From positions 2,307,154-2,371,153 of the forward strand of contig OY762064.1 of assembly GCA_963665145.1 (NCBI GenBank): a stretch of 64,000 bases of DNA, in the 5' to 3' direction. The notes beneath the pieces were generated by a model that worked only from the letters and a program-made list of their open reading frames with translations, made no database searches and had not been told where the DNA came from. Shown piece after piece: positions 9,719 through 40,337 of the stretch (within the stretch, counting starts at the first letter, position 1; each line of letters starts with the position of its first letter). Both the position numbers and the translations under genes were made by a program. The DNA is from Gammaproteobacteria bacterium (GTDB taxonomy: Bacteria; Pseudomonadota; Gammaproteobacteria; Steroidobacterales; Foliamicaceae).

Positions 9719-9729
9719 TGCGTCAGGAC

Positions 9730-15317: not shown

Positions 15318-16418
15318 ATGCCCTACATCTGGGAACTCAAAGACTGGCCGCATTTCACATGGAATGCGGGGGTTGTCCAGGACAATAGCTATCGCTACGC
15401 GCTAACCGTCAGCCGGCTGGCCAGCGAGGTGCGAGCGCTTTCCGACCAGGAGCGCACCAACTCGATGATTGATCTGATGGTCGCCGAGGCCCGGATGACA
15501 TCGCGGATTGAGGGCGAGACTGTTGATCCCGAAGCCGTTCGCTCATCCATCCTCAAGCAACTGGGCCTGGCCGAAGAGGATCGATGGCAAGATCCATACG
15601 CTCGCGGAATCGCCCGTCTGATGGTTCTGTGCCTCCAGGATTTTGCCGAACCGCTGACCGTTGAGGGCCTATGCTCCTGGCACCGTCAATTCCTGGGCGA
15701 AAGGATGCGCAACGCTGGGCGCTGGCGTACCGAGCCGATCTGGATCGTCTCCGGCGTTGCCGGGAAAGAAAAAGTGCACTTTGAGGGGCCTCCGGCTTCG
15801 CGGGTTGCCGGCGAAATGGAAGCCTTTGTCGAGTGGTTCAACGCCAGCAGTTCATTGCCGGGACCGGTGCGCTCCGGTGTGGCCCATTTGTATTTCGAGT
15901 CCATTCATCCATTTGCGGACGGAAATGGGCGCATGGGGAGGGCAATTGCCGAGATCGCGCTGTCGCAGGAATTGGGTTACCCGGCATTGCTGAGCTTGTC
16001 CGCCGCTATTGATCGGCAACGCAAGGAGTACTACCAGATGCTCAACGAGGCCAGCCGGCAAAGCAGTATGGACATTACCGGCTGGTTGGAATGGTGGGCA
16101 CAGTGCGTCCTGAATTCCCAGGAACAGGCCAGGGAACAGATCGCGTTTGTGATTCGCAAGGCGGAGTTCTGGCGCAGCTATGAGAATCGCGTCAACGACC
16201 GCCAGGAGAAGGTGTTGGCCCGCATGTTGCGCGAAGGGCCCGAGGGCTTCAAGGGTGGCATGAGTGCCCGCAAATACGTAGGACTGACGGGTTGCTCAGG
16301 TGCAACGGCCACCCGGGATCTGTCCTTGCTCACGAAAATCGGGGCGCTCGAACGGCTGCCCGCCGGCGGGCGCAGCACGCGCTATGTGCTGCGCTTTCCG
16401 GGATCACACGCGACATAA
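15318..16418 (+). CDS. Fic family protein (DUF4172-type N-terminus, C-terminal wHTH)
   Basis: Fic motif HPFADGNGRMGRA. N-terminus YIWELKDWPHFTW is typical of the long Fic family. Confidence 0.9.
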   Translation: MPYIWELKDWPHFTWNAGVVQDNSYRYALTVSRLASEVRALSDQERTNSMIDLMVAEARMTSRIEGETVDPEAVRSSILKQLGLAEEDRWQDPYARGIARLMVLCLQDFAEPLTVEGLCSWHRQFLGERMRNAGRWRTEPIWIVSGVAGKEKVHFEGPPASRVAGEMEAFVEWFNASSSLPGPVRSGVAHLYFESIHPFADGNGRMGRAIAEIALSQELGYPALLSLSAAIDRQRKEYYQMLNEASRQSSMDITGWLEWWAQCVLNSQEQAREQIAFVIRKAEFWRSYENRVNDRQEKVLARMLREGPEGFKGGMSARKYVGLTGCSGATATRDLSLLTKIGALERLPAGGRSTRYVLRFPGSHAT

Positions 16419-20245: not shown

Positions 20246-20818
20246 CTACGCTGTCGGCCAGGCTTGGTCCCGCCGAAAGTCAATTACTCCATGACTTCTC
20301 ACAATGTTCTTGCTTATTTCCGTGTCCTGTTCACAGAAGACGATCAGGTTCATCGAACCCGTGTGTCGTGCGCTGGGCACCAGTATTCCGTCAGCGCCCA
20401 GGAAGGCGCTCGCTTCGGCCACTTGCTGAGACCGTGTGTACTCTCCGTATCGCTTCACATAGGTCAGGCGCCCAATGGATGCAGCATCCAGACTCACGGC
20501 GGCTAAAGCCCCTACGTCGGGGAAACGAATCACTGCGCTTAGAGAGACACTCAGTTCGAACAGCTCGTAATTGATGTCGATAGGCGGAATCGGCTGCCCC
20601 TGGTAGAGGTGATATCGTCGTTCCGCAATCGCCGCCTCGCGGGTTTCTGACGTGTACAGGACGTCAAACGTCCCATCGTCCCATCGTCCTCCGGAGCGCG
20701 AGCAAATGAGTGGATCGCGGCCCTCTTTGACGGAACGCCAAACGATTCCCTCGTAGGACTCCTGGGCAACAGACTCCAGGGCGTCCAGCAATCGTTGGTC
20801 GCGAATCTGCGGATCCAT
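20246..20818 (-). CDS. RES-domain toxin (MbcT/ParT-like)
   Basis: RES-domain contexts GGRWDDGTFDVLYTSETREAAIAE and ILVPSARH. Sits immediately downstream of the cognate-type antitoxin. Confidence 0.85.
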   Translation of the reverse strand: MDPQIRDQRLLDALESVAQESYEGIVWRSVKEGRDPLICSRSGGRWDDGTFDVLYTSETREAAIAERRYHLYQGQPIPPIDINYELFELSVSLSAVIRFPDVGALAAVSLDAASIGRLTYVKRYGEYTRSQQVAEASAFLGADGILVPSARHTGSMNLIVFCEQDTEISKNIVRSHGVIDFRRDQAWPTA

Positions 20819-20844: not shown

Positions 20845-21195
20845 TCAGATATAAGCGTCTGCGTCAAGACGATCCAGAATCGCAATGACTTCTTCTGTTT
20901 GTTTGTTTCTTATGAGATCTATTGCGCGCTTGCCCTCGAGCTGGGGATGCGGTGCGTAAAGCCACGCGCGGACTTGCTCCTGGCGGTAGTACTCGCCAAG
21001 CCGCATGACTACGTATGCCAGGTCGGAAATAATGAGTTGCGTCAGTGGGCGAGGCGATTTGTGGCCATTCACCCAGCGGGAAACCGTGGCCTTGGAGACC
21101 CCGGTGAAGTTCGCGATATCGGTTCCCTTGAGTCCGCCCGTTTCCTTCATCTGGTCGAGGAATAGATTGACCGGCCTCGTGTATGCGGTGTTCAC
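20845..21195 (-). CDS. Xre-family antitoxin with DUF2384 (MbcA/ParS-like) C-terminal domain
   Basis: HTH segment GTDIANFTGVSKATVSRWVNG. C-terminal WLYAPHPQLEGKRAIDLIRNKQTEEVIAILDRLDA is typical of RES-system antitoxins. Confidence 0.85.
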   Translation of the reverse strand: MNTAYTRPVNLFLDQMKETGGLKGTDIANFTGVSKATVSRWVNGHKSPRPLTQLIISDLAYVVMRLGEYYRQEQVRAWLYAPHPQLEGKRAIDLIRNKQTEEVIAILDRLDADAYI

Positions 21196-24674: not shown

Positions 24675-24697
24675 CTCAGGCGGAAAGAACCCCCCAG

Positions 24698-25301
24698 CTA
24701 CCTGCTCAGCAGAATCCGCACGCCCAAGGCGCCGAGCACGGCCGCACCCACGCGGTCAATATGGATTTTCGCCCGCATGTAACGCTTCGCGACGGCTTGC
24801 GTGCTCATGCCGAAGGCGAGCGCCGTTTAGAAAGCGATTTCCACCAGGAAGTGGTTGGCGACGATGACGATGCTGTCGGCCAGGGCTGGTCCCGCCGGGT
24901 AAACGGTGACCAGAACGGCGGCGCCGAACAGCACGGATTTCGGATTGAGGAGATTCACCAGAAACCCCTGCCGGAATGCGCGCCCGGTCGGCCTGATCAC
25001 GGCCCTGGCAGGGACGCCGGCACTCCTCCACATCCTGTACGCGATGTACAAGAGATAAACAGCCCCTGCGGCCCTGGCGCCGACATACAAGAAAGGGAAC
25101 AGCTCGAAGACCACGCCGAAACCGAGCAGCGCCATCATCGTCCAGATCGCGGCCATCAGACCGAGTCCAGCACCAACCGCGATTCCGGCAGCGCGTCCCG
25201 CGCTCAACGACGTTTGAGGCGCCATCAGCATCTGCCGGTCCGGGGCTCGCAATAGCGGCTATCAGGACAATGTTGAAGGTTGCGAGTTGGGCCCAAGTCA
25301 T
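24698..25301 (-). pseudogene. LysE/RhtB-family amino-acid exporter gene with one frameshift and one in-frame TAA
   Basis: N-terminus MTWAQLATFNIVLIAAIASPGP is in one frame. The body (SLSAGRAAGIAVGAGLG...LNPKSVLFGAAVL...HFLVEIAF) is in another, with the shift at about 25230-25240. TAA at 24827-24829 is followed in frame by TALAFGMSTQAVAKRYMRAKIHIDRVGAAVLGALGVRILLSR and a stop at 24698. Confidence 0.7.
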
Positions 25302-25308: not shown

Positions 25309-27417
25309 CTACTTGACTTTCGCTTCGTCGAATGGGACTTGAAAGACCAGCGGTCGCTCAGACCTTATCCATTTCCCAAAAGCCACTGCGTGGAGTCTAG
25401 GTAGATTTGGTATCAGTTCTATATGCTCTGGGCCATAAATATTTTTCAGGAAGCCCAGGCTCGTATCGTCATAGCACGAAAAAGTGACTATGGTGTTGCA
25501 TTGCGTAAGAACAGTCTTGCTGACTGTCGCAGTTCTTTGAGCGAGGACAAGAAGGCCTACTCCATACTTCCGACCCTGGAGGGCAATTTGCGCTATCTTT
25601 CCTACAAGGCCTCTTGATTCAAAGTCACCTAAGCCCATCGTACTAGCCTCAGGCATAACCGTATGCGCCTCTTCCACGACAATCAGTGTCGGTGGGCTAC
25701 TTCCCAGCCTTTCCCTAGCGTAACGAAGCAAACACGTCATGTAGAGCTCCGTAATCCATAGTGTAGCCCTTGTGTTTGATATCTCCTCCAGTTGAATTAG
25801 CCCTACTTTCGCCTCACAAGCTGCATCCATAAACTCTGAGATCGAATCATTGACGTTTTGGCGCACACGTTCCGCAAACTCTTCGAGTGCTCTCTTTTCC
25901 GCTCCCGCTCCATACGCGCCTGTTTCTACCTCAAACAGTTTCTGTCCTAATTCGTGTGCCGTTTCTTCTTCGATTGAAAGATCTTGAGGATTAAGATCGC
26001 TGAGTCGCCCAGCGTAATGAGATGTTAGGTCGATACAAACCACTTTAAGCCCCTGCTTCACGGAGTGACGAATCAAGTCAAATGCGAGTTCAGTCTTTCC
26101 CGATCCGGTAACGCCAAGAATCGCCGTGTGGTGGTTGTAATCAGTTGAAAAAGAGCCTCCGACCTCAATCCCTGTCCTTGGTATCGTCCCCAGCACGAAA
26201 TCATTTTCAGTGACAGCAGTTGTTGAGATCTGGTCTTCATCGCGTGCGGAAAACACCGGCGAATTCATCGCAGGCAGCCAATCAACCTTTGTAAAGCCTT
26301 GTTCATGCACCAATTTTCCCAGCTGCGTGGCCGTTGCGACTTGAAAGCCATGCTTGTCAGTTGAAAAAGTCTCTTCCTTGGTCTCCCCGGATACAACTTG
26401 GTAGTGAACTTTTTCTCCAGTCACGTTTGCCCATACCAACATGCCATCATGGCAGGTGGCGCTATCGAGTGTCTCAAATCGTATTGATCCAATCGTAGAG
26501 CCCTCGACGACAAACCCTCGCAGGACCGCCCCTTCACCACCTTCGAGTGCGGCGCTTATTTCCTCAGGACTCGGAATGTCCGTGGTTTTGTCAGGATCTA
26601 TTACACAATTCCTTCTTGCGGTGAGTACTTCCGCTTCCAATTCAGTCAATAGTCCTGTCGCCAGAAGTCTGCCTTCCTGAAACTGAGAGAACAGAGGCTG
26701 AACCCAATGCGCTCGTCCATTCGGAAGAAGAGCCACTTGCGGGCATGAGTGCTCCCATACCGCCTCGCCATGCAGGGCAACTCGCAGTATGTTCGGGCTG
26801 TCTACCCTTACAATTTCGCCTATAGTTCCCGCCTCCGGTTCTGTTCTGGAGAACCATGCTGTTAACAGCTCTGGCACCCTTAGCGGCCAAATTGCAAGAA
26901 ACAATCCCCAAAAGACAATTAGAGCCAAAGTAATGGGGTCTTGCGTGTCATAGAAAAACCAAAGGGCAGAGAGAAATACCACCGAAAACAGTGTCCTTGA
27001 TCTTCCAAGAACAACTGATGGTCTATACGTAAACTTGGCCACTCTTGCTCGCCAGCCGTCGATGCTAGGGGAAGAGCTAACAGATACACAGGCTATGCTC
27101 AGTACAAGAACGACCGCGCAGAAGCCGGCAATTACATTCCATGGAACAACGGGGGCAATTCCTCGCACTGTTAGCAAAGTTATGAGTCCCATCAGCGAGT
27201 TGACGACAGAATCCGCTGGCTTGGTGTAGTGCTTCTCTAGCAGTGCTGACCCAAGCACTATTAACAACAAAGCGTTCTGAAAGAGGACCGCTTCCTTTGC
27301 ATCTGTTGGCAAATACGATCCCGTGTAAGCTTTTGCAATTAGACCGCACGTAGCGGTGGCAAACACAAGAATCAGTATGCGAACCCATGGCGCTACTGCA
27401 TTTTTCATTCTAGACAT
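25309..27417 (-). CDS. membrane-anchored HerA/FtsK-superfamily (DUF87-like) ATPase
   Basis: N-terminal ~190 aa with about six hydrophobic helices. Central beta-barrel-like region (GFVVEGSTIGSIRFE...VHYQVVSGE). Walker A ILGVTGSGKTELAFDL, Walker B TLIVVEEAHTVMPE, then LQGRKYGVGLLVLAQRTATVSKTVLTQCNTIVTF. Confidence 0.8.
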   Translation of the reverse strand: MSRMKNAVAPWVRILILVFATATCGLIAKAYTGSYLPTDAKEAVLFQNALLLIVLGSALLEKHYTKPADSVVNSLMGLITLLTVRGIAPVVPWNVIAGFCAVVLVLSIACVSVSSSPSIDGWRARVAKFTYRPSVVLGRSRTLFSVVFLSALWFFYDTQDPITLALIVFWGLFLAIWPLRVPELLTAWFSRTEPEAGTIGEIVRVDSPNILRVALHGEAVWEHSCPQVALLPNGRAHWVQPLFSQFQEGRLLATGLLTELEAEVLTARRNCVIDPDKTTDIPSPEEISAALEGGEGAVLRGFVVEGSTIGSIRFETLDSATCHDGMLVWANVTGEKVHYQVVSGETKEETFSTDKHGFQVATATQLGKLVHEQGFTKVDWLPAMNSPVFSARDEDQISTTAVTENDFVLGTIPRTGIEVGGSFSTDYNHHTAILGVTGSGKTELAFDLIRHSVKQGLKVVCIDLTSHYAGRLSDLNPQDLSIEEETAHELGQKLFEVETGAYGAGAEKRALEEFAERVRQNVNDSISEFMDAACEAKVGLIQLEEISNTRATLWITELYMTCLLRYARERLGSSPPTLIVVEEAHTVMPEASTMGLGDFESRGLVGKIAQIALQGRKYGVGLLVLAQRTATVSKTVLTQCNTIVTFSCYDDTSLGFLKNIYGPEHIELIPNLPRLHAVAFGKWIRSERPLVFQVPFDEAKVK

Positions 27418-27576: not shown

Positions 27577-28605
27577 ATGGGTAATCTCCAATGGTGTCAC
27601 CAAATGAGCAATACAGGCAAATGCAAGCTTTGTAAACGGAATGGGCCACTCCAAATGAGCCATGTCATTCCGCGGTTTGTCAGGAAACAAACTAGAGCGA
27701 CTAGCGCTGTGGAGAACCCTAGGTACTACACAGTAGAGGGAGGTGAGTTCCAGAAGTTGGAGCAAGATTTCTCAAAGAGAGCTTGGCTTTGTCAACAATG
27801 CTAACAACTGCTCTCGCGTAGCGAGAAGAGGTTTTCGGAAGATGTCTACCAAGGCTTTTGGGCAGGCCGGGCCGGAAGCGCCGCGATCCATGGAGAGCAT
27901 GTTCATAGATTCCTGGTATTAACGACTTGGCGTGCGTGGCACTGGTACGACCAGCACCCCAAAAAGCCCTTTAGTAGGGTTTCAAATCAGGATCGCCTCA
28001 AGGAAGCTGAGCAAGCATGGAGAAACTATCTCCTTGGTGAGCGCGCCGATGTTGGAGAGTTCAAGCAACATATGCTGGCGCAAAGCAGGCAGATAGCTAG
28101 CGCTGGTGGATATTCAGTCACATTGGATGGCTACTACTGGGTTCGCGGTGTCAACTTGGATATGTTGAGTCGTGGGGAATCAACGGAAGAGATTCTCATG
28201 GTCTATACAAAGATCCCCAAGATCGCGATTTTTGGCGTAGTGGAGCGTGAGAAGATAGGTTTTTGGCGCGGCACACTCGTAGAACCACGTATGGGAGACA
28301 CATGGACAAGCCGAGATCCGATAGTTCCGGACCCGATTCTTCAATACATGAGTTATCAGAGCCATAAAATGCTCGCGAGTTTAGACACCGTTCCCGAGGA
28401 AGTTAAGAGAAAGACTAGGCAGAAGATGGAATCCCTCATCCAGAAGGAAGGCGACGAATACTTAGAGAGGGACGCAGTGCAATCCTTGGTGACAGACGAC
28501 CTGATGGAATTACCAGGAGAAAGCATCGTATCCGATGCAATTGGCTGGTTAGCAAAGTCCTTGGATCCGCGAGCCCAGAAAATGGGGAGCTACTCGGCAA
28601 CCTAA
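27577..28605 (+). pseudogene. Cys4 (zinc-ribbon-like) protein gene of unknown function interrupted by a single in-frame TAA at 27802-27804
   Basis: ORFs 27577-27804 and 28072-28605 are in the same frame. I translated 27805-28071 codon by codon and found no further stop (QLLSRSEKRFSEDVYQGFWAGR...EFKQHM). CKLC...SHVIPRFV...CQQC lies at the N-terminus. Confidence 0.6.
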
Positions 28606-28652
28606 CAGAACCGGAATTGAGATCCCTTCACAAGGAAACGAACAGGATTGGA

Positions 28653-28904
28653 ATGCGATGTAAAGTACTAGATTGTGAAGAGCGGTTTAGTTTCCTAGCC
28701 GATGGTACAGAGGAATCTAGGGAGCCGGGCACGGCGATCCTAGTTGGCGTTGAAGTCTATCGGACGCCAGAGCGTGCCGAGCAGAGATCGCGATTACCAT
28801 TGAATTTCCGAGTGGAATCGGAAGAGGTAACACTAGCCTTGGGTGCGCAAGTTGTGTCGGCTCCTCGGGGCCATAGCGAGCGGGGCATTAGGTACCTTGC
28901 GTAA
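28653..28904 (+). CDS. hypothetical small protein
   Basis: ATG preceded by AGGA. No recognisable motif. Lies between convergent genes. Confidence 0.3.
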   Translation: MRCKVLDCEERFSFLADGTEESREPGTAILVGVEVYRTPERAEQRSRLPLNFRVESEEVTLALGAQVVSAPRGHSERGIRYLA

Positions 28905-29046: not shown

Positions 29047-29667
29047 TCAGTTACTTTGGATTGAATGACTTTCGAGTTGCGGCTTATGATGCGCATAAAA
29101 AATACTCTCCGCACGCTGAATAATGTCCGGTCTAACTAGCCGATGATAGGAGAGCTTTGGAAAGTTGTGTTCAATGGGCAGAGGATCTAATGGAAACATC
29201 CCAGTCTGCCTTGAAGTAAATGGTGTAATTCGGAAATCCCTGCAGAGTAGCTTGAGACCCTCTTTCTTCAGGAAGTCTTCAATTTTTTCAGCAAGTATGC
29301 GATCCGATCCGATATACAGCGAAATGTGCGGATTAAAGCCGTACTCTTCAATTGGATAGTCTGGTTTCCACCAAAGCCTATTTAGCCATTTGCTCCACAC
29401 TCGAATGTACACCACATAATTTCCTTGATTTTCGAACATACCAATACCATGAATCAAAAGCGGCTGATTGCCCGGCATCGCACTGAATGTTTTGAGTTTT
29501 TCTCTGGAAATTGTTTTGTTGTACGGTCCGCGAACTGTGATGTGAATATTTGTATGCCGCTCTTCGTCCGAGAACGCGGCTCGTAATCCACACAGCAAAC
29601 CGTTTATTTCAGGGTCCAATAACTCTAGGAATAAGAATTGCATTAACTTCGGTGACTTATGTCTCAT
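29047..29667 (-). CDS. 2H phosphoesterase superfamily protein (LigT/CPDase/2',5'-PDE-like)
   Basis: Two H-x-T/S-x tetrapeptides, NIHITVRG (His42) and NPHISLYIG (His114), with hydrophobic flanks and spacing typical of the 2H fold. 4-nt overlap with the upstream NTase gene. Confidence 0.7.
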   Translation of the reverse strand: MRHKSPKLMQFLFLELLDPEINGLLCGLRAAFSDEERHTNIHITVRGPYNKTISREKLKTFSAMPGNQPLLIHGIGMFENQGNYVVYIRVWSKWLNRLWWKPDYPIEEYGFNPHISLYIGSDRILAEKIEDFLKKEGLKLLCRDFRITPFTSRQTGMFPLDPLPIEHNFPKLSYHRLVRPDIIQRAESIFYAHHKPQLESHSIQSN

Positions 29668-30647
29668 AGCACCAAGTATTTCTTCATGTCAGATTTAACA
29701 CCGTTGTGCATTAGTGCCGAGTAAATGAAATCCGAGAATCTGCGCGCCGCCTCCCTTGAAACCTTGCCCAATTCCTCGGCCGGAATCTGTTCTGTTGTTC
29801 CATCCACATCCTTCCAAGACAGAAAGGACTCGTAATCATCAAGAAATTGCGTGTAGTCCTTGAGCATGCCTGAGTCGTTGAGCGCGTCTAGTCCACGTGA
29901 GAGTCTTTCAAGTGGAGTTAGGCGAACAAGGTCGAAGATGCAGTCCGCACTATGCATTTGTTCTACGAGAATTGGCAATATCGCTCCAAATACGGTTAGC
30001 TTCCGACTAAACTTCAAATTGATGTTCTTCTTTCTCCATGGTCGAGATTGATCAGATCGGATTTGTTCATAGTTCAAACAAAGCGTTCTCCAATACCTCA
30101 ATAGGTCATTTAGAAGAAATAGTGGCCGGAAGGATTGTTTCCCACTGCTGTCTCTGAAGTAGTGCGTAATAGTGCGACTCAGAGCGTCGTTGTATAGCTG
30201 CTCCCCTAAGATGCATTTGCTTTCTAAGAGCAAGAGCATTCTCGCTGTGAATAAGTTCTCGCTGTCGTCGTATGGAGCCCCAACTACTCGGAGCATTTCG
30301 TCGAGTGAATATACCTTTAGGAATTGTCCATCGTTGCTAAACGGCTCAAATTCCAGTAGCTCATTTATCTCGATGGCTGAGCTTTGTAATCGAATCTCAA
30401 TTAGACTCTCTGTCTCTTCTTCCGGACGGGTTGTTACCAAGAACAAGTCGAGATCAGATTGGGCTCCAATTTCGCCGCGTGCAAGTGAACCAGCGCAAAA
30501 GACAAACGCATCATAGTTGTTATAGATGTCAGCACGATTTGCGAATGCCTCTCGGACATCGTTTAGTCTTTTTCCTGCTTCCTCTTGTCTTTCGGATAAC
30601 CCAGGGTGTTGCCGAAGGCATTGCGTGTAAGTCGATTTTGCTGTCAT
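29664..30647 (-). CDS. Pol-beta-superfamily nucleotidyltransferase with long helical C-terminal domain
   Basis: NTase signature FVFCAGSLARGEIGAQSDLDLFLV (G-S...D-x-D), followed by ~230 aa of predicted helices. An in-frame TAA three codons upstream fixes the start. Confidence 0.75.
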   Translation of the reverse strand: MTAKSTYTQCLRQHPGLSERQEEAGKRLNDVREAFANRADIYNNYDAFVFCAGSLARGEIGAQSDLDLFLVTTRPEEETESLIEIRLQSSAIEINELLEFEPFSNDGQFLKVYSLDEMLRVVGAPYDDSENLFTARMLLLLESKCILGEQLYNDALSRTITHYFRDSSGKQSFRPLFLLNDLLRYWRTLCLNYEQIRSDQSRPWRKKNINLKFSRKLTVFGAILPILVEQMHSADCIFDLVRLTPLERLSRGLDALNDSGMLKDYTQFLDDYESFLSWKDVDGTTEQIPAEELGKVSREAARRFSDFIYSALMHNGVKSDMKKYLVL

Positions 30648-31075: not shown

Positions 31076-33058
31076 ATGACCAACGGCAACGTTAACTGGA
31101 TCGCGAACTACATTTGGGGCATTTGCGACGATGTCCTCCGCGACCTCTACAGCCGCGGCAAATATCGTGACGTAATTCTGCCGATGACGGTGCTACGCCG
31201 GCTCGATGTCGTTCTTGAAAGCACCAAGCAGGCCGTCCTGGACTTGAAAGAGATGCTAGACCAAGCTGGGGTGGTCGACCAGGATGCAGCCCTTTGTCAA
31301 GCATCCGGACAGGCTTTCTACAATACCTCGAAATTCACGTTGAGCGACCTTCGTGCAAGGGCCAGTCAGGCGCAACTGAAGGCAGATTTCGAAGCCTACC
31401 TCGACGGATTTTCCTCAAACGTGCAGGAGATCCTCGACAACTTTGAGTTCCGTAACCAGATCCCACGGCTCAGCAAGGGCGACGCGCTTGGAGCCCTGAT
31501 CGAGAAGTTAACGTCCCCTGCGGTGAACCTGAGCCCCAAGCCGGTGAAGGACGCTCAAGGAAACATCAAGCTCCCCGGTCTAGACAACCATGCGATGGGT
31601 ACGATGTTCGAAGAACTCGTTCGCCGCTTCAACGAAGAGAACAACGAAGAAGCCGGCGAGCACTGGACTCCGCGCGATGCGGTCCGGCTCATGGCGAAAC
31701 TGGTGTTTCTGCCCATTGCTGACCAGATCCAGTCCACCACATACGCCCTCTATGATGGTGCTTGCGGAACCGGGGGAATGCTAACCCTCGCGGAAGAGAC
31801 GCTGGAGGAATTGGCGGCGGAACAAGGCAAAAGGGTTTCCACGGTCCTGTACGGCCAAGAAATCAACGCCGAGACCGCCGCCATATGCAAAGCTGACCTG
31901 ATGCTCAAGGGTGAGGGCGAGGCCGCCAAGAACATCGTCGGCGGGCCCGAGCACTCGACCCTGGCCAATGACGCGTTTCCGTCTCGCACTTTCGACTTCA
32001 TGCTTTCCAACCCGCCCTACGGCAAGAGTTGGAAGACCGATCTAGAGCGGATGGGCGGTAAAAAAGACATGCACGATCCGCGGTTCGTAATTGAGCACAA
32101 TGGAAGTCCCGAGTACTCGTTGGTCACCCGGTCGAGCGATGGTCAGATGTTGTTCCTAGTCAACAAGCTCTCTAGGATGAAGCAGGACACGCTGCTCGGC
32201 AGCCGCATCGCCGAGGTCCATAACGGCAGTGCACTCTTTACCGGAGCTGCTGGCCAGGGTGAGAGCAACATTCGCCGCTGGATTATCGAGAACGACTGGT
32301 TAGAAGCCATCGTCGCCCTGCCGCTTAACCTGTTCTATAACACGGGCATTGCCACCTACGTGTGGGTGCTAACGAACCGGAAGCCGGAGCACCGCAGGGG
32401 CAAGGTACAGTTGATCGACGCGACCCAATGGTTCCAGCCATTGCGCAAAAGCCTAGGGAAGAAGAATTGCGTGCTCGGCGAGGATGACATCGCGCGGATT
32501 AGCCGTACGTTCTTGGATTTCGAGGAGACTGAGCAGAGCATGATCTTCGAAAACGACACTTTCGGGTACTGGAAGGTACCAGTCGAGCGACCCCTTCGCG
32601 TTGATGGTGCTGAACTGGAACGCGCCTACACAGCGGCAGAGATCAAGGCGCTCAAAGAAAGTGGCGAATGCAGCGAAAATGCCCCGCCGGTCATCCGCAA
32701 GATTCACAAGCGCGGGGTTAAGGCCGACCCGATTCACGGGCTACATGAGACGACGATTGGCGGCCAGCTGGTTGTCGTGGAATACGAACCGGACCGTCAA
32801 TTGCGGGACACTGAGCAGGTTCCGCTTCAGGAGGAAGGAGGGATTAAGGCATTCCTGGAGCGCGAGGTTCTTCCCTACGCTGAGGACGCCTGGTACAAGC
32901 CGAACGCCGTCAAGATCGGTTATGAAATTAGCTTCACGCGTTATTTTTATAAGCCGAAGCTAATGCGCACGCTAGATGAGATTCGGGCCGATCTCCTCGC
33001 GTTGGAAGAGGAGACAGAAGGGGTGCTCGGAGATATTTTGGGAAGCGCCAACACATGA
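31076..33058 (+). CDS. hsdM: type I restriction-modification system DNA methyltransferase subunit
   Basis: AdoMet motif YDGACGTGGML and catalytic LSNPPYGKSW. HsdM-type N-terminal helical domain. 660 aa. Confidence 0.92.
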   Translation: MTNGNVNWIANYIWGICDDVLRDLYSRGKYRDVILPMTVLRRLDVVLESTKQAVLDLKEMLDQAGVVDQDAALCQASGQAFYNTSKFTLSDLRARASQAQLKADFEAYLDGFSSNVQEILDNFEFRNQIPRLSKGDALGALIEKLTSPAVNLSPKPVKDAQGNIKLPGLDNHAMGTMFEELVRRFNEENNEEAGEHWTPRDAVRLMAKLVFLPIADQIQSTTYALYDGACGTGGMLTLAEETLEELAAEQGKRVSTVLYGQEINAETAAICKADLMLKGEGEAAKNIVGGPEHSTLANDAFPSRTFDFMLSNPPYGKSWKTDLERMGGKKDMHDPRFVIEHNGSPEYSLVTRSSDGQMLFLVNKLSRMKQDTLLGSRIAEVHNGSALFTGAAGQGESNIRRWIIENDWLEAIVALPLNLFYNTGIATYVWVLTNRKPEHRRGKVQLIDATQWFQPLRKSLGKKNCVLGEDDIARISRTFLDFEETEQSMIFENDTFGYWKVPVERPLRVDGAELERAYTAAEIKALKESGECSENAPPVIRKIHKRGVKADPIHGLHETTIGGQLVVVEYEPDRQLRDTEQVPLQEEGGIKAFLEREVLPYAEDAWYKPNAVKIGYEISFTRYFYKPKLMRTLDEIRADLLALEEETEGVLGDILGSANT

Positions 33059-34386
33059 ATCCTGTACTAAGGCCCTACCTGAAGAAAAGAAGCTCTGGGA
33101 TCGAATGGTTGGGGGACATTCCTAGTCATTGGAACGTAGTGAAGGGAAAGCACTTGTTTCGGTGCGTAGATGAACGATCGTTGACTGGCGGCGAAGAGTT
33201 GTTGACCGTATCTTCAGATCGTGGCGTGGTTCCTCGGGCGTCCGCCTCGGTGACAATGTTCAAGGCAGATTCTTACGTCGGGCACAAGCTGTGTTGGCCG
33301 GGAGATTTGGTCATCAACAGCTTGTGGGCTTGGGGAGGAGGACTCGGGTTTTCAAAGTACCATGGACTCGTTAGCTCTGCGTACGGCGTTTATCGTTTGC
33401 GCAACTCTGCTGCCCATGACACCGCTTATTTTCATAGACTTCTTCGGTCACTCCCGTTCAACTTCGAATTACGGGTTCGTTCGAAAGGGATATGGACGTC
33501 ACGGCTGCAGTTGACTAATGGAGCGTTTCTTGCTGCACCGATACTCCTACCTCCTTACCCCGAACAAACTGCTATCGCTGGCTTTCTTGACCATGTAGAC
33601 CGCCGGATCCAGAAATACATCCGCGCTAAGGAAAAGCTGATTGCATTACTGAAGGAACATCGTTTGGCAGCGACGGCAGAAACGATGCAGCAACGAAACG
33701 CGCCAAGACTAAGACTAGGCGTTGTCGCTGAGCCAATCAAGAGACCCGTTTCTCGCGTCAGTGACAAATCGTATGTTCCTATTGGTCTTTTTAATCGCGG
33801 CAGAGGGATTTTCAAAAAACAACCTCGACGTGGTAACGAACTGGGTGACTCCGATTTTTTTTGGGTACGGGAGGGGGACCTCGTCATTAGTGGTCAATTT
33901 GCGTGGGAAGGGGCGGTGGCCTTAGCCGGCAAGGCAGAGGATGGATGCGTAGCAACTCACCGTTATCCAATACTACGCGGCAGGGCCGGAGTTCTCGAAA
34001 CTGGATACTTGCTGTCTTTTCTCCAAACTGATTGGGGGCAATTGCTTCTTGACCATCATTCACGGGGTGCAGCAGGCAGAAACCGGCCACTCAATGCCCG
34101 GACTCTTGCGAAAGAGAAGATTCCAATTCCACTGCTTGATCACCAGACCATAATCAAATGCATGTTGCAGCACGAAACCGGCATTCGCTCGCAGGTGCAG
34201 CGTTGGAAGTTGTTGTTTGAGGAATTCCGTACCCGGCTCATTGCCGATGCTGTAACTGGCAAACTCGATGTCCGCGAAGTAGCCGCAAACCTTCCTAAGC
34301 TAGATTATCTTGACGACGATGGCGCCAGTGACGTCTTGAACAGCGAGGGCATGCTTGACCTAGACGAGGCAACTGCTAGGACGTAG
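33055..34386 (+). CDS. hsdS: type I restriction-modification system specificity subunit
   Basis: Two target-recognition halves, each followed by a conserved helix (LPPYPEQTAIAGFLDHVDRRIQKYI and IPIPLLDHQTIIKCMLQHETGIRSQV...AVTGKLDVRE). ATGA overlap with hsdM. Confidence 0.85.
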   Translation: MNPVLRPYLKKRSSGIEWLGDIPSHWNVVKGKHLFRCVDERSLTGGEELLTVSSDRGVVPRASASVTMFKADSYVGHKLCWPGDLVINSLWAWGGGLGFSKYHGLVSSAYGVYRLRNSAAHDTAYFHRLLRSLPFNFELRVRSKGIWTSRLQLTNGAFLAAPILLPPYPEQTAIAGFLDHVDRRIQKYIRAKEKLIALLKEHRLAATAETMQQRNAPRLRLGVVAEPIKRPVSRVSDKSYVPIGLFNRGRGIFKKQPRRGNELGDSDFFWVREGDLVISGQFAWEGAVALAGKAEDGCVATHRYPILRGRAGVLETGYLLSFLQTDWGQLLLDHHSRGAAGRNRPLNARTLAKEKIPIPLLDHQTIIKCMLQHETGIRSQVQRWKLLFEEFRTRLIADAVTGKLDVREVAANLPKLDYLDDDGASDVLNSEGMLDLDEATART

Positions 34387-34397
34387 TCTGCCAGCCC

Positions 34398-37300
34398 ATG
34401 ACCACAGACACCTCCGAACGTGGCCTCGAACGCCTGATATGCATGGCGTTGGCTGGGGATTCATGCGAGCCCCCCAAAGGGCCGACTGTCGCCGAACCTG
34501 TTGCTGCTTGGGGCGGCATTGGCTGGAGCCCGGGCAACTTTCATCACTACGACCGCGAGTTTTGCATCGATCTGCTCCAACTCGCCGCGTTTCTGGAACT
34601 TACTCAATCTCGTACTATGAGTTCGCTCAACCTTGCCGAAGACAGCCCTACACGGCGCAAGTTTCTGGCACGGCTGCAGCGTGAGGTCAGCAAGCGGGGC
34701 AGCATTGATATCTTGCGCCATGGCATCAAACATGGCCCGCACCACCTGGATCTCTTCTACGGTACGCCTTCTCCCGGCAACGAGAAAGCAAAGAAACGAT
34801 TCGAGAAGAATCGATTCACCGTTACCCGGCAACTGCGCTACAGTCGCGACGAGGCACAGCGTGCTCTGGACATCGTGCTGTTCATCAACGGCCTGCCGAT
34901 ACTCACGTTCGAACTGAAGAACAGCCTTACCAAGCAGACTGTCGATGACGCTATCGAGCAGTACAAACGAGACCGAAATCCACGCGAAAAGCTGTTCGAG
35001 TTCGGCCGCTGCGTGGCTCATTTCGCGGTGGACGACCACGAGGTACGCTTCTGCACGCACCTGAAGGGTAAAGGATCTTGGTTTCTACCCTTCAATCTAG
35101 GCTGGAACGATGGGGCCGGAAATCCGCCTAACTCTATGGGAATCAAGTCTGACTACCTGTGGCGCAAGGTGCTCGCCCGCGAGAGTTTGACAAACATCCT
35201 GGAAAACTACGCCCAGGTGGTCGAGTCTAAGGACGAAAAGACCGGTCGCAAGAAAAAAACCCAAATCTGGCCCCGCTATCACCAACTGGACGTGGTGCAG
35301 CATCTGCTCTCCAATGTCGCGGAAAACGGTGCAGGAAAGCGTTACCTCATCCAGCATTCCGCCGGCAGCGGTAAGAGCTACTCGATTGCCTGGCTGGCCC
35401 ATCAACTGATCGGTCTGAAGCATGGAGGGTTTACGGCTTTCGATTCCATAATTGTCGTGACCGACCGGCGCATCCTCGACAAGCAGATTCGCGACACGAT
35501 CAAGCAGTACGCTCAGGTTGGCGCGACGGTCGGGCATGCCAAACGATCTGGCGATCTCCGCCGGTTCCTTGAGGACGGCAAGAAGATCATCGTATCGACG
35601 GTGCAGAAGTTTCCCTTCATCCTCAATGAGATCGGAAACGAGCAGCGCGGACGTCGGTTCGCGATCATTATCGATGAGGCTCATTCCAGTCAAGGCGGTC
35701 GCACCAGCGCGGCTATGTCAGGGGCGCTTTCCGAAGCCGGCCGGGTCGACGAGGAAGAAACCTATGAAGACCGCATCAACAAGCTGATGGAGTCCCACAA
35801 GCTCCTGTTCAACGCGAGCTATTTTGCGTTCACTGCGACTCCCAAGAATAAGACACTGGAGATTTTTGGTGATGCAGATCCGCAGGCGGACGGCAGAGTA
35901 GAGCATCGAGCCTTCCACAGCTACACCATGAAACAGGCCGTCCAGGAGGGGTTCATTCTGGACGTGCTGACCCACTACACGCCGATATCGAGTTACTACA
36001 AGCTCACCAAGACCATCGAAGAAGACCCCAAGTTCGACACCCAAAAGGCGCAGAAGAAGCTGCGTCGCTTCGTCGAAGGGCACGAGCACGCAATCCGAGC
36101 CAAGGCCGAGATCATGGTTGACCACTTTCACGATCAGGTGATTCGGCAGAACAAGATCGGCGGCGAGGCACGGGCGATGGTCGTTACCAACGGCATCGAA
36201 AGGGCCGTCCAGTACTTCCACGCCATACGCGACTACCTCAAAGAGCGCAAGAGCCCGTTTAAGGCGATCGTAGCCTTTTCCGGGGAGCACGAGTTTGGCG
36301 GGAAGTCCGAGACCGAGGCCAGTTTGAACGGTTTTCCGTCCGCAAAGATTGCGGAGCGCTTCCGGGAACACCCCTACCGGTTCCTGGTTTGCGCCGACAA
36401 GTTTCAGACTGGCTACGACGAGCCGCTATTGCACACCATGTATGTGGACAAGACGCTCGCCGGCATCAAGGCAGTGCAGACGCTGTCTAGGTTGAACCGG
36501 GCCCGTCCCAACAAGCACGATGTATTCGTATTGGACTTCCTCAACGATTCTGAAACCATCCAGATCGCTTTCGAACCCTTCTACCGTGGAACGGTACTCG
36601 CCGACCAGACGGACCCCAACAAGCTGCACGACCTAGTGGCCGATTTGGACGGCGCGCAGGTTTACTCCGATGAGCAAATCGACAGCTTGGTTTCCCAGTA
36701 TCTCGACGGAGCGGACCGGGACCGGCTCGATCCGATCCTCAACGATTGCGTGGCTTCCTATAAGAGCGATCTCGACGAAGACGGCCAGATCCGCTTCAAA
36801 GGTAAAGCAAAGGCGTTCGTGCGGACCTATGCGTTTCTCGGTTGCGTGCTCCCCTACAACAACCCTGGGTGGGAAAAGCGCTCCATCTTCCTGAATTTCC
36901 TGATCCCCAAACTTCCGTCACCGGAGGAAGACGATCTCTCCAGGGGCATTCTCGAAGCGATTGACATGGACAGCTACCGCGTCGAGAAGCGCGCAACGCA
37001 AACGATCCTTCTAGAGGACGAAGAAGGCGAGATCGGACCTGTGCCCACATCTGGCATGGGTGGACGGCCGGAGCCCGAGATGGACCCGTTATCGGAGATT
37101 TTGCGGGATTTCAACGATCGGTTCGGCGACATCGAATGGGAAGATGCAGATCGCGTCCGCGCTTTGATCGCCGAGACCATCCGCTCACGAGTAGCCGACG
37201 ACGAAGCTTACCGAAACGCCCGGGAAAACTCCGACAAGGAAAACGCCCGCGTGGAGCACGACCGCGCTCTGCTCCGCGTGATGACTTCGCTAATGAAGGA

Positions 37301-37400
37301 CGATACGCAGCTGTTCAAACTGTTCATGGACGATCCAGGGTTCAAGCGGTGGCTGACGGAAAAGATTTTCCATCTGACCTACTACGAAGCCGGTGTCTAA
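34398..37400 (+). CDS. hsdR: type I restriction endonuclease R subunit (SF2 helicase/translocase)
   Basis: Walker A IQHSAGSGKS, DEAH box IIIDEAHSSQGG, FTATPKN, motif VI QTLSRLNR. 1000 aa. Confidence 0.92.
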   Translation: MTTDTSERGLERLICMALAGDSCEPPKGPTVAEPVAAWGGIGWSPGNFHHYDREFCIDLLQLAAFLELTQSRTMSSLNLAEDSPTRRKFLARLQREVSKRGSIDILRHGIKHGPHHLDLFYGTPSPGNEKAKKRFEKNRFTVTRQLRYSRDEAQRALDIVLFINGLPILTFELKNSLTKQTVDDAIEQYKRDRNPREKLFEFGRCVAHFAVDDHEVRFCTHLKGKGSWFLPFNLGWNDGAGNPPNSMGIKSDYLWRKVLARESLTNILENYAQVVESKDEKTGRKKKTQIWPRYHQLDVVQHLLSNVAENGAGKRYLIQHSAGSGKSYSIAWLAHQLIGLKHGGFTAFDSIIVVTDRRILDKQIRDTIKQYAQVGATVGHAKRSGDLRRFLEDGKKIIVSTVQKFPFILNEIGNEQRGRRFAIIIDEAHSSQGGRTSAAMSGALSEAGRVDEEETYEDRINKLMESHKLLFNASYFAFTATPKNKTLEIFGDADPQADGRVEHRAFHSYTMKQAVQEGFILDVLTHYTPISSYYKLTKTIEEDPKFDTQKAQKKLRRFVEGHEHAIRAKAEIMVDHFHDQVIRQNKIGGEARAMVVTNGIERAVQYFHAIRDYLKERKSPFKAIVAFSGEHEFGGKSETEASLNGFPSAKIAERFREHPYRFLVCADKFQTGYDEPLLHTMYVDKTLAGIKAVQTLSRLNRARPNKHDVFVLDFLNDSETIQIAFEPFYRGTVLADQTDPNKLHDLVADLDGAQVYSDEQIDSLVSQYLDGADRDRLDPILNDCVASYKSDLDEDGQIRFKGKAKAFVRTYAFLGCVLPYNNPGWEKRSIFLNFLIPKLPSPEEDDLSRGILEAIDMDSYRVEKRATQTILLEDEEGEIGPVPTSGMGGRPEPEMDPLSEILRDFNDRFGDIEWEDADRVRALIAETIRSRVADDEAYRNARENSDKENARVEHDRALLRVMTSLMKDDTQLFKLFMDDPGFKRWLTEKIFHLTYYEAGV

Positions 37401-38146
37401 TGGGCGCCAGTTATCCAACCAAACTGACCCTTGCATTTCGTAGTGGTGACCGATGCGCCTTTCCGGTCTGCGATCGAGCACTTTCCGCTGGCGGGGAAGG
37501 ATCAAGCCCCATAGTGACGGGTGTTGCCGCACACATTGTGGGAGAAAAACCAGGGTCTGCTCGCTTCGATGCTGCGATGCCCGCAGAGCAACGCAATAGT
37601 CATGACAACTTGATCTACCTATGCAGAGATCACCATGACTTAATTGATAAGAGAGAAGAAGAGTTCCCTGTCGAAAGGCTACGCCGCATGAAGCAGGAGC
37701 ATGAGGCGAGGGTGCTTGAGGCAGTAACCCAGGCATTCGCCTCTGTGGGCTTTTCGGAACTCGAAGTAGCGACTCACGCTTTGTTGCAGTCGGAACTAGG
37801 AGAAGTGAGTCGGGATTTCTCGCTGACTGCATTGAATAACAAGATCAAGAAAAACGCACTGGGAATCAATTCGCGGATCATCATAACGTCGGGACTAAGC
37901 TTGTCGGGAGAAATTCAAAACTTCATTGAGTGCGTTGCACAAACCGACGAGCATTTCGCAGAGAGACTTAAGCTAGGATTTCTCAGCGAATACCATCGCC
38001 TTAGAAAAGAAGGCCACTTTGGCGACGTGCTTTTCGAACTAATGTGCCGCTTCGCTCAAGAAGGATTTAGCGAACAGGCGAGTCGATCTGCTGCACTTGC
38101 AATCTTGATCTACTTATTCGAGACTTGCGAAGTATTCGAGAAATGA
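37400..38146 (+). CDS. HNH endonuclease fused to an ABC-three-component-system-type C-terminal domain (effector component)
   Basis: CAFPVCDR...AAHIVGEKPGSARFD...HDNLIYLCRDHHDLIDK (CxxC...H...N...CxxHH). Helical C-terminal domain ending LIYLFETCEVFEK. Start ATG shares its A with the hsdR TAA (TAATG). Confidence 0.7.
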   Translation: MGASYPTKLTLAFRSGDRCAFPVCDRALSAGGEGSSPIVTGVAAHIVGEKPGSARFDAAMPAEQRNSHDNLIYLCRDHHDLIDKREEEFPVERLRRMKQEHEARVLEAVTQAFASVGFSELEVATHALLQSELGEVSRDFSLTALNNKIKKNALGINSRIIITSGLSLSGEIQNFIECVAQTDEHFAERLKLGFLSEYHRLRKEGHFGDVLFELMCRFAQEGFSEQASRSAALAILIYLFETCEVFEK

Positions 38147-38370
38147 TTTTACCGTCAAAGCACATCTCAGAGGATCAGACAGTTCTGGGAATTGGTGCCC
38201 TCCTTTTGCAGTACCTAGATCGGCCACAGACGGTCACTAGTCTTTGGAACAAAGTACGGAATGAGCGCGTGGTGGGCACATTCGAACGATTTGTTGTGAC
38301 GCTAGACTTTCTCTATATCATCGGATTGGTCGTGTTATCCCATGGCACGATTCGCAAGTTGGTGCCATGA
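38143..38370 (+). CDS. small middle-component-like protein of the ABC-three-component module
   Basis: 75 aa. ATGA overlaps at both ends. Position between effector and ABC ATPase matches the described ABC-3C gene order. The sequence itself is not diagnostic. Confidence 0.55.
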   Translation: MILPSKHISEDQTVLGIGALLLQYLDRPQTVTSLWNKVRNERVVGTFERFVVTLDFLYIIGLVVLSHGTIRKLVP

Positions 38371-40127
38371 TCCACGGCATAACCGCCAACCACGACTCCT
38401 TTCATGCCGTGGAATTCACAACGGGTCTCAACGTAATCCTCGCTGAGCGCTCGGCTGCGGCAACGGAGAAAGACACGAGGAACGGGCTTGGGAAATCCAC
38501 GCTCATAGAGATTATCCACTTTTGTCTTGGCAGCCGTGCTGATAAAGGCAAGGGTCTCTCGATTGATGCTTTGAATGACTGGACTTTCACGGTTGATCTC
38601 ACGCTGTCCGGCAATCGAGTTAGAGCTACCAGGGCCGTAGCCGATCCCAATCGGGTTCTGATTGAAGGCCCCACCGGAGGCTGGATTGAGCAACCGGAAA
38701 GTGACGACTTGTTGCGTCAGCGTTCGTTCAAAGTTGAACGATGGCGAACTCTACTTGGATGGTCGCTGTTCGGCTTGCATCCGTTGGAAGGTAAGAGCTC
38801 CTATCGACCTAAGTATCGTAGTTTGATTTCGTATTTCATCCGACGTGGACCCGATGCCTACGTTAGCCCCTTTCGACACTTTCGACAGCAAAACACCTGG
38901 GACATACAGCTTCACATTGCTTATCTGCTAGGTATGAACTGGGAATATGCGGCCCAATGGCAGAAATTGAAGGATAGAGCAGCTGCAATCAGCGCAGTTC
39001 AAAAGGCCAAAAAAACAGGCGCCTTGGATGGTTCAATTAGCAGTATCGGAGAATTAGAGACTCAGGTAATTCAGCTCGAACAACAGGCCAGCGTGGCAAG
39101 GAACGCGTTGGACAATTTCAAAGTCCATCCACAATATGAAGCACTGCAAAGGGATGCCGATGGCCTGACCAGTCAGGTACATGAGTCAACTAACCGTAAT
39201 GTTGCTGATCGGCGGCGACTAACACGATACAAAGAGTCAATCAGGGAGGAGAAGCCGCCAAGCAGAATTTCTTTGAAGAAAATATACGAGGAATGCGGCG
39301 TGGTGTTTTCTGCAACTTTGCAGCGGTCGCTGGATCAAGCAAGAACCTTTCATGACGAGATCATTTCCAATAGGCGCGCGTTCTTGAGCGCTGAGATCAA
39401 GAATCTACGCGAAACCATTAGACAGCGAAACGGCAAGATCAAGACACTTACCGATAAGCGCGCGGAAGTCTTGCAGGTACTTGAGACACACGGCGCCCTA
39501 CAGGAGATGACCAGTTTGCGTGAGCAGTTCGTTAAACAGCAAGAGTCGCTTGAGCGAGCCCGAACTCACTTAAGTGAATTGAAGGAGTTAAATTCGTCTA
39601 AACGCGACATCAAGAAAAACACAGAAGAATTGTTGCGATTGGCGGAGCAAGATCATGAGGATAGAAGACAAGTTTGGTCTGAGGCCGTCCGCCTGTTCAA
39701 CGAGTATTCTCAGGTACTCTATGAGTCTCCCGGGAAGCTGGTCATTGACGTTAGCGATACAGGATACAAGTATCGGGTTGATATAGAAAGAAGCGGTAGC
39801 GAAGGCATCGAGAAAATGAAGGTATTCTGTTTTGACTTGTTGGCATTACGTTTGCGAAGAAAGGCGAGTAACGGCTTAAATTTCCTTATTCACGACTCTT
39901 TGGTTTACGACTCTGTAGACAGCAGACAACGCGCACTAGCGTTGGAGCAAGCGCATCGCATTACGACTGCGGTAGGTGGACAGTACATCTGTGCAATTAA
40001 TTCAGACATGGTCCCCAGCAAGGACTTTAGTGATGAATTCGAATTCAATCGGCATGTGCGCCTTACCCTATCCGATGCGAAGCCAGCAGGGAGCTTACTG
40101 GGCATACGATTTGAGGCGTCGATTTGA
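38367..40127 (+). CDS. ABC/SMC-like ATPase with coiled-coil insert (DUF2326/YydD-like, ABC-3C ATPase component)
   Basis: N-terminal FTTGLNVILAERSAAATEKDTRNGLGKSTLIEIIHFCLG (Walker A). ~200 aa of heptad-like coiled coil. C-terminal FLIHDSLVYDSVD (Walker B/D-loop). Confidence 0.75.
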   Translation: MIHGITANHDSFHAVEFTTGLNVILAERSAAATEKDTRNGLGKSTLIEIIHFCLGSRADKGKGLSIDALNDWTFTVDLTLSGNRVRATRAVADPNRVLIEGPTGGWIEQPESDDLLRQRSFKVERWRTLLGWSLFGLHPLEGKSSYRPKYRSLISYFIRRGPDAYVSPFRHFRQQNTWDIQLHIAYLLGMNWEYAAQWQKLKDRAAAISAVQKAKKTGALDGSISSIGELETQVIQLEQQASVARNALDNFKVHPQYEALQRDADGLTSQVHESTNRNVADRRRLTRYKESIREEKPPSRISLKKIYEECGVVFSATLQRSLDQARTFHDEIISNRRAFLSAEIKNLRETIRQRNGKIKTLTDKRAEVLQVLETHGALQEMTSLREQFVKQQESLERARTHLSELKELNSSKRDIKKNTEELLRLAEQDHEDRRQVWSEAVRLFNEYSQVLYESPGKLVIDVSDTGYKYRVDIERSGSEGIEKMKVFCFDLLALRLRRKASNGLNFLIHDSLVYDSVDSRQRALALEQAHRITTAVGGQYICAINSDMVPSKDFSDEFEFNRHVRLTLSDAKPAGSLLGIRFEASI

Positions 40128-40263: not shown

Positions 40264-40337
40264 TGGGCCGTGAGGGAATCGAACCCGCAACCAATGGATT
40301 AAGAGTCCACTGCTCTACCTAGTTGAGCTAACGGCCC
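40264..40337 (-). tRNA. tRNA-Lys (anticodon CTT), no encoded CCA, one T-stem mismatch
   Basis: Hand-folded cloverleaf: GGGCCGT/ACGGCCC acceptor, GCTC/GAGC D-stem, anticodon loop CTCTTAA, T-loop TTCGATT. C50:T64 is unpaired. The 3' flank is TCA, not CCA. Confidence 0.8.

Follow-up and report, generated by a model that had tools for sequence, protein, structure and literature searches.

A HerA-type ATPase with a six-helix membrane domain as a candidate one-gene system of bacterial defence islands

What is the function of a HerA-type ATPase that carries its own membrane domain and has none of the established HerA partners encoded beside it? This question is raised by a gene in a stretch of 64,000 nucleotides (the window) from a gammaproteobacterial genome of the family Foliamicaceae (assembly GCA_963665145.1, contig OY762064.1, positions 2,307,154 to 2,371,153). 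The open reading frame (ORF) at 25309-27417 on the minus strand begins with ATG, encodes 702 amino acids (aa) and constitutes a complete gene, herA, the product of which is referred to here as TM-HerA for its transmembrane (TM) helices. Starting from the N-terminus, the six TM helices are followed by a beta domain, then by a HAS barrel and finally by the HerA ATPase. A first-pass annotation, made from the letters of the window, had seen a protein of this length with about six N-terminal hydrophobic helices, a central barrel-like region and a HerA/DUF87 ATPase, and had suggested either a membrane-coupled DNA translocase acting against incoming DNA or a remnant of a conjugative or secretion ATPase. 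The architecture is borne out by the present analysis, the remnant is not. The favoured reading, to which we assign a probability of roughly 50%, is that TM-HerA acts autonomously, as a defence module of one gene directed against phages or other DNA entering the cell.

By every sequence and fold measure applied, TM-HerA is a member of the HerA clade. The RecA-like ATPase core with its helical insert (aa ~405-702, 25312-26205; this and all following parts of the gene lie on the minus strand) matches Pfam PF01935 (DUF87) with 33.3 bits (cut-off 23.2, E 6.7e-8) and at least ten PADLOC HerA models, the best at 5.8e-23. Searched against the PDB, a profile of 57 family sequences retrieves anti-phage HerAs (8e-21 to 4e-10) as well as those of repair (6e-10, 1e-9); in sequence, TM-HerA is nearer to the anti-phage proteins (8e-21 to 1e-14) than to the repair proteins. 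Foldseek searches with the AlphaFold2 (AF2) model of the full-length monomer, which has a predicted local distance difference test score (pLDDT) of 81.9, return Sulfolobus HerA (4d2i) at 1e-20 and DUF4297-HerA and SIR2-HerA at ~1e-17, with alignments that cover the barrel plus the ATPase. The three motifs quoted in the first-pass annotation are present exactly as given, at verified coordinates: Walker A, GVTGSGKT (aa 435-442, 26092-26115), with G435, T437, G438, G440, K441 and T442 invariant in the 57 sequences; Walker B, LIVVEEAH (aa 578-585, 25663-25686), with E583, A584 and H585 invariant in the same set; and the segment QGRKYGVGLLVLAQR (aa 614-628, 25534-25578), a HerA signature with a conserved Arg-Lys pair, in which Q614, G615, R616 and K617 are invariant and which the PDB profile alignment places opposite EGRKYG of the anti-phage proteins.

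The central region consists of two beta domains. The first (aa ~195-275, 26593-26835) is modelled with strands between residues 198 and 273 at pLDDT 80-91 and contains the invariant residues G200, R204, D206, P208-N209 and R212. The second is a HAS barrel (aa ~292-400, 26218-26544) with modelled strands between residues 298 and 390; in the profile search, query positions 292-452 align to residues 6-174 of the HerA chain 8yho, and the Foldseek matches to HerAs extend over the same domain.

The N-terminal membrane domain (aa 1-190, 26848-27417) is the feature that is foreign to the known HerA systems, as the first-pass annotation had remarked; it is real, conserved and polytopic. Two AF2 models, one of the full-length monomer and one of aa 1-195 modelled separately, agree on six TM helices at aa 10-32, 40-63, 66-82, 90-114, 140-154 and 161-179, and the hydropathy averaged over the family likewise yields six hydrophobic helices within aa ~10-180. 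An amphipathic, Arg/Lys-rich helix is modelled at aa 122-137. The distribution of Lys and Arg residues fits an N-in/C-in topology, according to which all other parts of the protein would be cytoplasmic. The membrane domain is conserved to the same degree as the ATPase, with (near-)invariant positions at Q47, E61, T65-K-P-A-D69, N73, W93, W170-G171 and P182, and because invariant polar residues are among them the domain is more than an anchor. A Pfam scan assigns it to no family, and a Foldseek comparison of the separate model (pLDDT 81.3) with the PDB retrieves no solved relative (best E 0.49, TM-score ~0.38). Only ~15 residues join the membrane domain to the beta domains.

The same architecture recurs in a rare and widely scattered family. 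A homology search yielded 542 significant matches, and among the matches listed more than 120 are full-length at 50-93% identity, from Gammaproteobacteria, Coriobacteriia, Desulfobacterota, Zetaproteobacteria, Ignavibacteria, Chloroflexota and others. Among 185,579 genomes (one per species), a pattern scan located 302 loci, about 0.16%, also in Actinomycetota, Alphaproteobacteria, Planctomycetota, Acidobacteriota and several lineages of the candidate phyla radiation (CPR). When the N-terminal 400 aa served as query of an exhaustive phmmer search, the matches fell into 476 clusters (50% identity); fragments aside, nearly all of these are 680-765 aa long and have the same domain order. The N-terminal half was found only in TM-HerAs of ~700 aa, in fragments and in one fusion of 1273 aa. 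The architecture of the family is fixed. Proteins from Gammaproteobacteria, Coriobacteriia, Desulfobacterota and Phycisphaerae are 60-65% identical to each other, and in the window herA has a GC content of 49.5% in a host of 63-65%; the gene clearly moves horizontally, and its rare family is dispersed across phyla.

Phages do not appear to be the carriers. No match was detected in 50,697 records of cultured phages and one in 2.9 million viral contigs of IMG/VR, and a phage-borne gene, for example for superinfection exclusion, is therefore rejected. Plasmids carrying a homologue are rare as well (9 of 72,556; four of the nine are typed conjugative). In the window, the ratio of non-synonymous to synonymous substitution rates (dN/dS) between herA and its 93%-identical homologue at locus L081 is 0.13. 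Because the gene is of full length and subject to purifying selection, and both flanking genes have decayed, it is evidently maintained and not a remnant. The fusion protein, P0259, a metagenomic representative, is a TM-HerA with a C-terminal extension of ~540 aa that contains two weak PD-(D/E)xK-type regions (DUF559, E 0.0032; PDDEXK_1, E 0.002; both below the Pfam cut-offs) and has no sequence match in the PDB. These nuclease-like regions are a hint that the family has a DNA-directed role.

Eleven contexts besides the window were annotated, either with precomputed Pfam assignments or with the plasmid record's own annotation; ten are defence or mobile islands and one is a lone insertion between housekeeping genes. 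The islands contain NERD, DUF3800 and DUF4268 genes (L081), a 1711-aa DEAD/UvrD helicase with toxin-antitoxin (TA) genes (L082/83), a TA cluster together with a helicase/PLD/DUF6361 system (L084), integrase, methylases and PLD (L091), integrase, GIY-YIG and type III restriction-modification (RM) genes (L093), and, on the two plasmids L088 and L089, a restriction enzyme, Abi, Fic, AbiE and two reverse transcriptases. In Desulfatitalea the gene adjoins hsdRSM (L085), and at L087 a Pycsar-type TIR gene lies 154 nt upstream on the same strand and Mrr downstream. In Mariprofundus ferrooxydans (L086, LIGC01000003.1) it stands between pglX and pglZ in a BREX operon, of which a Shedu-type gene is also part. 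At this locus (3380-9996), PglX is represented by two ORFs: one encodes the methylase part (598 aa), the other a part of 574 aa with a match to the C-terminal half of PglX models (7e-213). Three inserted genes lie between these parts, namely an SLFN/AlbA_2-HATPase gene, a 178-aa ORF and Shedu SduA_C, and TM-HerA is situated between the second part and PglZ. The lone insertion is a 60%-identical TM-HerA between clpB and housekeeping genes (L092; JGI 3300003887, Ga0062443_1000149), the neighbours of which encode a periplasmic binding protein, Tsx and RF-1; no island cargo is visible within 8 kb.

Does TM-HerA have a partner of its own? The window encodes no NurA, Sir2 or DUF4297 protein adjacent to herA, as the first-pass annotation had stated and as family scans of the flanking ORFs bear out. 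The search was extended to an all-vs-all BLASTP comparison of the ORFs of 80 loci and the window (E 1e-8 with a coverage requirement; E 1e-3 for the three genes on either side). At neither E value did a conserved neighbour emerge from these loci; what recurs is limited to spurious antisense ORFs and small clusters of RM type. The 137 adjacent ORFs from 79 loci are heterogeneous, with DNA methylases, Mrr, TIR, SIR2, UvrD-type helicases and PD-(D/E)xK proteins leading the tally, and SIR2_2 occurs in only two of them. NurA, Mre11 and Rad50 are not found among the neighbours. Nor do genes for type IV secretion systems (T4SS), relaxases, pili, Rep or Spd recur in more than 80 loci; consistent embedding of homologues in conjugation or T4SS loci, which had been named beforehand as the finding that would speak for a transfer ATPase, was looked for and is not the case. 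At the two plasmid loci inspected, TM-HerA lies among defence genes and insertion sequence (IS) elements, not transfer genes.

The only partner candidate put forward in the first-pass annotation was the divergently transcribed Cys4 (CxxC...CxxC) gene at 27577-28899 (plus strand), now a pseudogene. Its interruption is confirmed: relative to the intact 454-aa homologue at L081, a GAA codon is replaced by TAA at 27802-27804, and the frame shifts near 28587. L081 and the window share a 4.2-kb block of 92% nucleotide identity that comprises the Cys4 gene, herA and LysE, which lies downstream of herA in L081 too. A tblastn search over 90 loci and the comparison of homologue neighbourhoods find the Cys4 gene with L081 only, and it is absent from 88 of the 89 other loci. 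The intact L081 protein has no Pfam or PADLOC family. As it accompanies herA only in this 93%-identical relative, the Cys4 gene is rejected as a partner.

In some lineages, other genes are tightly adjacent. At L011, hsdR-hsdM-hsdS precede TM-HerA on the same strand, with 22 nt in between, a PLD nuclease gene begins 16 nt downstream at L074, and in Bradyrhizobium (L064, 8001-11938, and L067) the TM-HerA stop overlaps the start of a gene for a 586-aa SIR2 protein by 4 nt. Over its whole length, the SIR2 protein matches PDC-S65, a single-gene candidate of PADLOC (8e-206), and the TIR gene of L087 matches PycTIR/PDC-S35; all of these are models of stand-alone defence candidates. TM-HerA and SIR2 may form a lineage-specific pair in Bradyrhizobium. 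The tightly adjacent SIR2, TIR or PLD genes are a hint that ties the family to DNA-directed conflict, and they may also be mere island neighbours.

Comparison with characterised machines defines what TM-HerA is not. It is neither SIR2-HerA, DUF4297-HerA or HerA-NurA, nor a T4SS ATPase, FtsK/SpoIIIE, Ced or MADS, because the defining features of each were tested and are absent. The closest are the anti-phage systems SIR2-HerA (Gao19/Nezha) and DUF4297-HerA (9c1m, 8xau, 8ziq, 8wiv, 8j4u), which have the same HAS barrel and HerA RecA core, common Walker A, Walker B and (E/Q)GRKYG signatures, the best PDB profile matches and the location in defence islands. In contrast to these systems, TM-HerA has ~290 additional N-terminal residues (the six TM helices and the first beta domain), no adjacent SIR2 or DUF4297 gene, and appears to act alone; the NCBIfam equivalogs HerA_antiphage and HerA_antiphage_2 score 66.9 (cut-off 800) and 58.1 bits (cut-off 850), over aa ~529-684 only. 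The end-resection helicase HerA-NurA (4d2i, 9x1l) shares the overall fold of HAS barrel and ATPase (TM-score 0.62 on the target for 4d2i), whereas TM-HerA is membrane-embedded, has a weaker sequence similarity to it (6e-10) and is patchily distributed on islands and not encoded in a repair operon; the HerA-NurA equivalogs NF040937 and NF040819 reach 43.8 (cut-off 800) and 37.7 (cut-off 970).

The membrane-bound DNA pumps FtsK/SpoIIIE, Streptomyces TraB, TrwB/VirD4 and archaeal CedB belong to the same superfamily and follow a common design, an N-terminal TM segment coupled to a hexameric P-loop motor. The core of TM-HerA is of the HerA clade with a HAS barrel, however, and not of the FtsK or VirD4 clade, its six-helix TM domain is unrelated to theirs, and it lacks both a gamma/winged helix-turn-helix (wHTH) domain and a context of transfer or division genes. 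At E <= 0.01, no FtsK family of Pfam matches, and the protein ends directly after the ATPase core. Matches to T4SS families are confined to aa ~423-471 and score 19.1 for TrwB_AAD_bind (cut-off 20.5), 15 for the TraG P-loop domain (25.8) and 15.3 for TraC (567); those to CedD (48.8, cut-off 600) and CedB (18.6, cut-off 700) cover the Walker A region only, and, unlike Ced DNA import, the TM-HerA family is bacterial and has no conserved partner. Besides the HerA models, PADLOC returns only mad8 (E 9.3e-15, ATPase core only) and a weak AbiO match. MADS is an eight-gene operon including mad8 (10.1101/2023.03.30.534895), unlike the TM-HerA locus; no mad operon surrounds the gene in the window or at homologue loci, and the mad2 matches among neighbours are RM-type methyltransferases. 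In concept, TM-HerA resembles Tmn, a transmembrane KAP-family NTPase that Gao et al. in 2020 reportedly found to be a one-gene defence system: in both, one gene in defence islands combines a P-loop NTPase with TM helices. Tmn differs in that its NTPase is of the KAP clade and its TM helices are inserted inside the NTPase. A full-text search of the literature retrieved no description of a membrane-embedded HerA family.

How might a single protein of this kind act? Every characterised HerA, to our knowledge, forms a hexamer, and in the solved anti-phage complexes known to us the ring always drives an enzymatic effector that is a protein of its own. In the solved complexes, NurA, SIR2 and DUF4297 dock on the HAS-barrel face of the ring. 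TM-HerA would form a hexamer by analogy with other HerAs. Since the membrane domain precedes the HAS barrel, it should lie on the HAS-barrel face of the ring, and because this is the docking face of NurA, SIR2 and DUF4297, it would take the position of the effector; as the linker is short, a ring of 36 TM helices would directly adjoin this face. The ATPase ring may then engage foreign DNA on the inner side of the cytoplasmic membrane and pass an ATP-driven conformational change to the 36-helix membrane assembly. As output, the membrane could be opened or permeabilised, leading to abortive infection, or the DNA could be obstructed or expelled at its site of entry. Gating of the membrane is considered the more likely of the two, although the specific output is less certain than the defence-module reading as such. 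In its most explicit form, a hexameric motor mounted coaxially on a 36-helix ring would pump out or jam incoming phage or plasmid DNA, or would open a lethal pore upon DNA-dependent ATP hydrolysis; this picture is tentative and, in all its details, somewhat unlikely to be correct. If true, both the defence mechanism and the membrane fold would be without described precedent.

The preference for a one-gene defence module derives from the lack of a fixed partner and the usual location among anti-phage genes, and the action against incoming DNA that had been suggested for the window fits the defence-island contexts. TM-HerA is accordingly rated as a HerA-based conflict system in which a membrane module may replace the enzymatic effector. 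Several points weigh against this assessment. The defence role is a putative one, assigned through guilt by association in a modest sample that comprises the window, the 11 annotated contexts and the tallies of adjacent ORFs. PADLOC v2.0.0 has no distinct model for TM-HerA. Where SIR2, TIR or PLD genes are tightly adjacent, there may be outputs besides the membrane domain. Finally, the linker (aa 180-194) is modelled with pLDDT <50, so that the monomer model cannot set the orientation of the membrane domain relative to the ring.

Three other explanations have to be weighed against the one-gene defence module. TM-HerA could be a membrane DNA translocase that serves the spread of the islands, exporting or importing double-stranded DNA as one protein in the manner of TraB, FtsK/SpoIIIE, T4SS coupling proteins or CedB. 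A hexameric motor of the FtsK-HerA superfamily with a polytopic membrane domain is a known design for a DNA conduit, several loci are integrative islands with integrases (L091, L093), and four of the nine plasmid matches are on plasmids typed conjugative. Integrases occur in a minority of loci only, however, and with nine matches among 72,556 plasmids, neither of the inspected plasmid loci providing a transfer-gene setting, the gene is nearly absent from these vehicles. The weak matches to TrwB_AAD_bind, TraG, TraC, CedB and CedD all remain below the curated cut-offs and extend over ~45-85 residues around Walker A, a C-terminal wHTH/gamma domain for DNA recognition is missing, and the more than 80 loci have no recurrent gene for a relaxase, a T4SS, a pilus, Rep or Spd. 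A gene that stands alone among housekeeping genes at L092 and inside a BREX operon at L086 is likewise difficult to reconcile with transfer, which we consider unlikely. The related proposal of the first-pass annotation, a remnant of a conjugative or secretion ATPase, fails on the same sub-threshold, P-loop-only matches, the gene neighbourhoods and the scarcity on plasmids, and in addition on the intact gene, its dN/dS and the fixed architecture of the family.

The known HerA defence systems consist of two genes, and TM-HerA could correspondingly be the membrane-tethered scaffold and sensor of a two-component system with a variable adjacent effector, such as SIR2, TIR, PLD or another nuclease, which would be disabled in the window through loss or breakage of the partner. 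The SIR2 overlap in Bradyrhizobium, the TIR gene upstream at L087, the PLD nuclease downstream at L074, the nuclease-like regions fused in cis in P0259 and the prevalence of same-strand neighbours (48/73 upstream, 48/78 downstream) can all be read in this way. The SIR2 and TIR neighbours match stand-alone candidates, though, and neighbours of these types are found in only a few of ~90 loci, most of which have no recognisable effector and share no homology among their neighbours. The Cys4 gene is missing from nearly all other loci, at L092 housekeeping genes flank TM-HerA on both sides, and in the window purifying selection acts on herA, whereas the genes on either side of it have decayed; a two-component system therefore seems improbable. 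Quite improbable, in turn, is a cellular role outside defence, for example as an ATP-driven membrane transporter or as a factor for membrane quality or stress that rides on islands. Such a role would agree with the housekeeping locus beside clpB and with the conserved polar residues of the membrane domain, as a transporter might have them, and the defence reading itself appears to be one of context. It is difficult to combine with the patchy distribution over about 0.16% of species genomes, the clear transfer between phyla, neighbourhoods that are defence or mobile islands, and a HAS barrel and HerA core that are known only from DNA-handling machines.

In the window, herA occupies the distal edge of a low-GC block of ~15 kb (25.3-40.2 kb) that extends to a tRNA cluster. 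The edge position, already noticed in the first-pass annotation, is evident from the GC contents of herA (49.5%) and of the LysE remnant just downstream (62.6%), the host background being 62-68%. This remnant, a frameshifted exporter gene of the LysE/RhtB family (24697-25301, minus strand; two frames, NCBIfam 2A76/RhtC), marks the left edge of the foreign block. The right bound is formed by tRNA-Lys, -His, -Arg and -Pro genes (40264-40766, minus strand; anticodons CTT, GTG, TCT and TGG), where the GC content increases from ~50% to ~64%. Within the ~15-kb island no integrase was seen, and a scan for promoters and terminators around herA gave no signal exceeding the shuffled expectation. Beyond the Cys4 pseudogene follows a pair of genes with a 4-nt overlap (29047-30647, minus strand), which encode a 327-aa nucleotidyltransferase matching PADLOC PDC-M70A (5e-29) and a 206-aa partner without family; the pair has the lowest GC content in the window (43-46%) and is a probable, uncharacterised defence candidate of two genes. 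On the plus strand, a type I RM operon (31076-37400) consists of hsdM (31076-33058), hsdS (33055-34386) and hsdR (34398-37400). It is followed, also on the plus strand, by an ABC-3C-like pair, comprising an HNH_2/CTD10 protein of at most 336 aa (ORF 37136-38146, the start of which overlaps hsdR) and a 586-aa DUF2326 ATPase (38367-40127).

To the left of the island, a region of intermediate GC content encodes a Fic/DUF4172 protein (15318-16418, plus strand) and a RES-domain toxin (20246-20818, minus strand); a 116-aa ORF upstream of the toxin gene (20845-21195) may encode the RES antitoxin. Further to the left, three tandem paralogues of 350, 350 and 357 aa (10329-13526, plus strand) each contain a trypsin-like peptidase domain (Trypsin_2).

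Should TM-HerA be confirmed as a defence protein, a compact, one-gene, membrane-acting HerA system would join the catalogue of defence systems, and HerA scaffolds would be seen to swap soluble for membrane effectors, as do CBASS, Thoeris and Pycsar. The family would then also provide a tractable model of a DNA motor that is coupled to a membrane output, and its members, which public databases carry as 'DUF87 domain-containing protein', 'helicase HerA domain-containing protein' or 'ATP-binding protein', would gain a better annotation.

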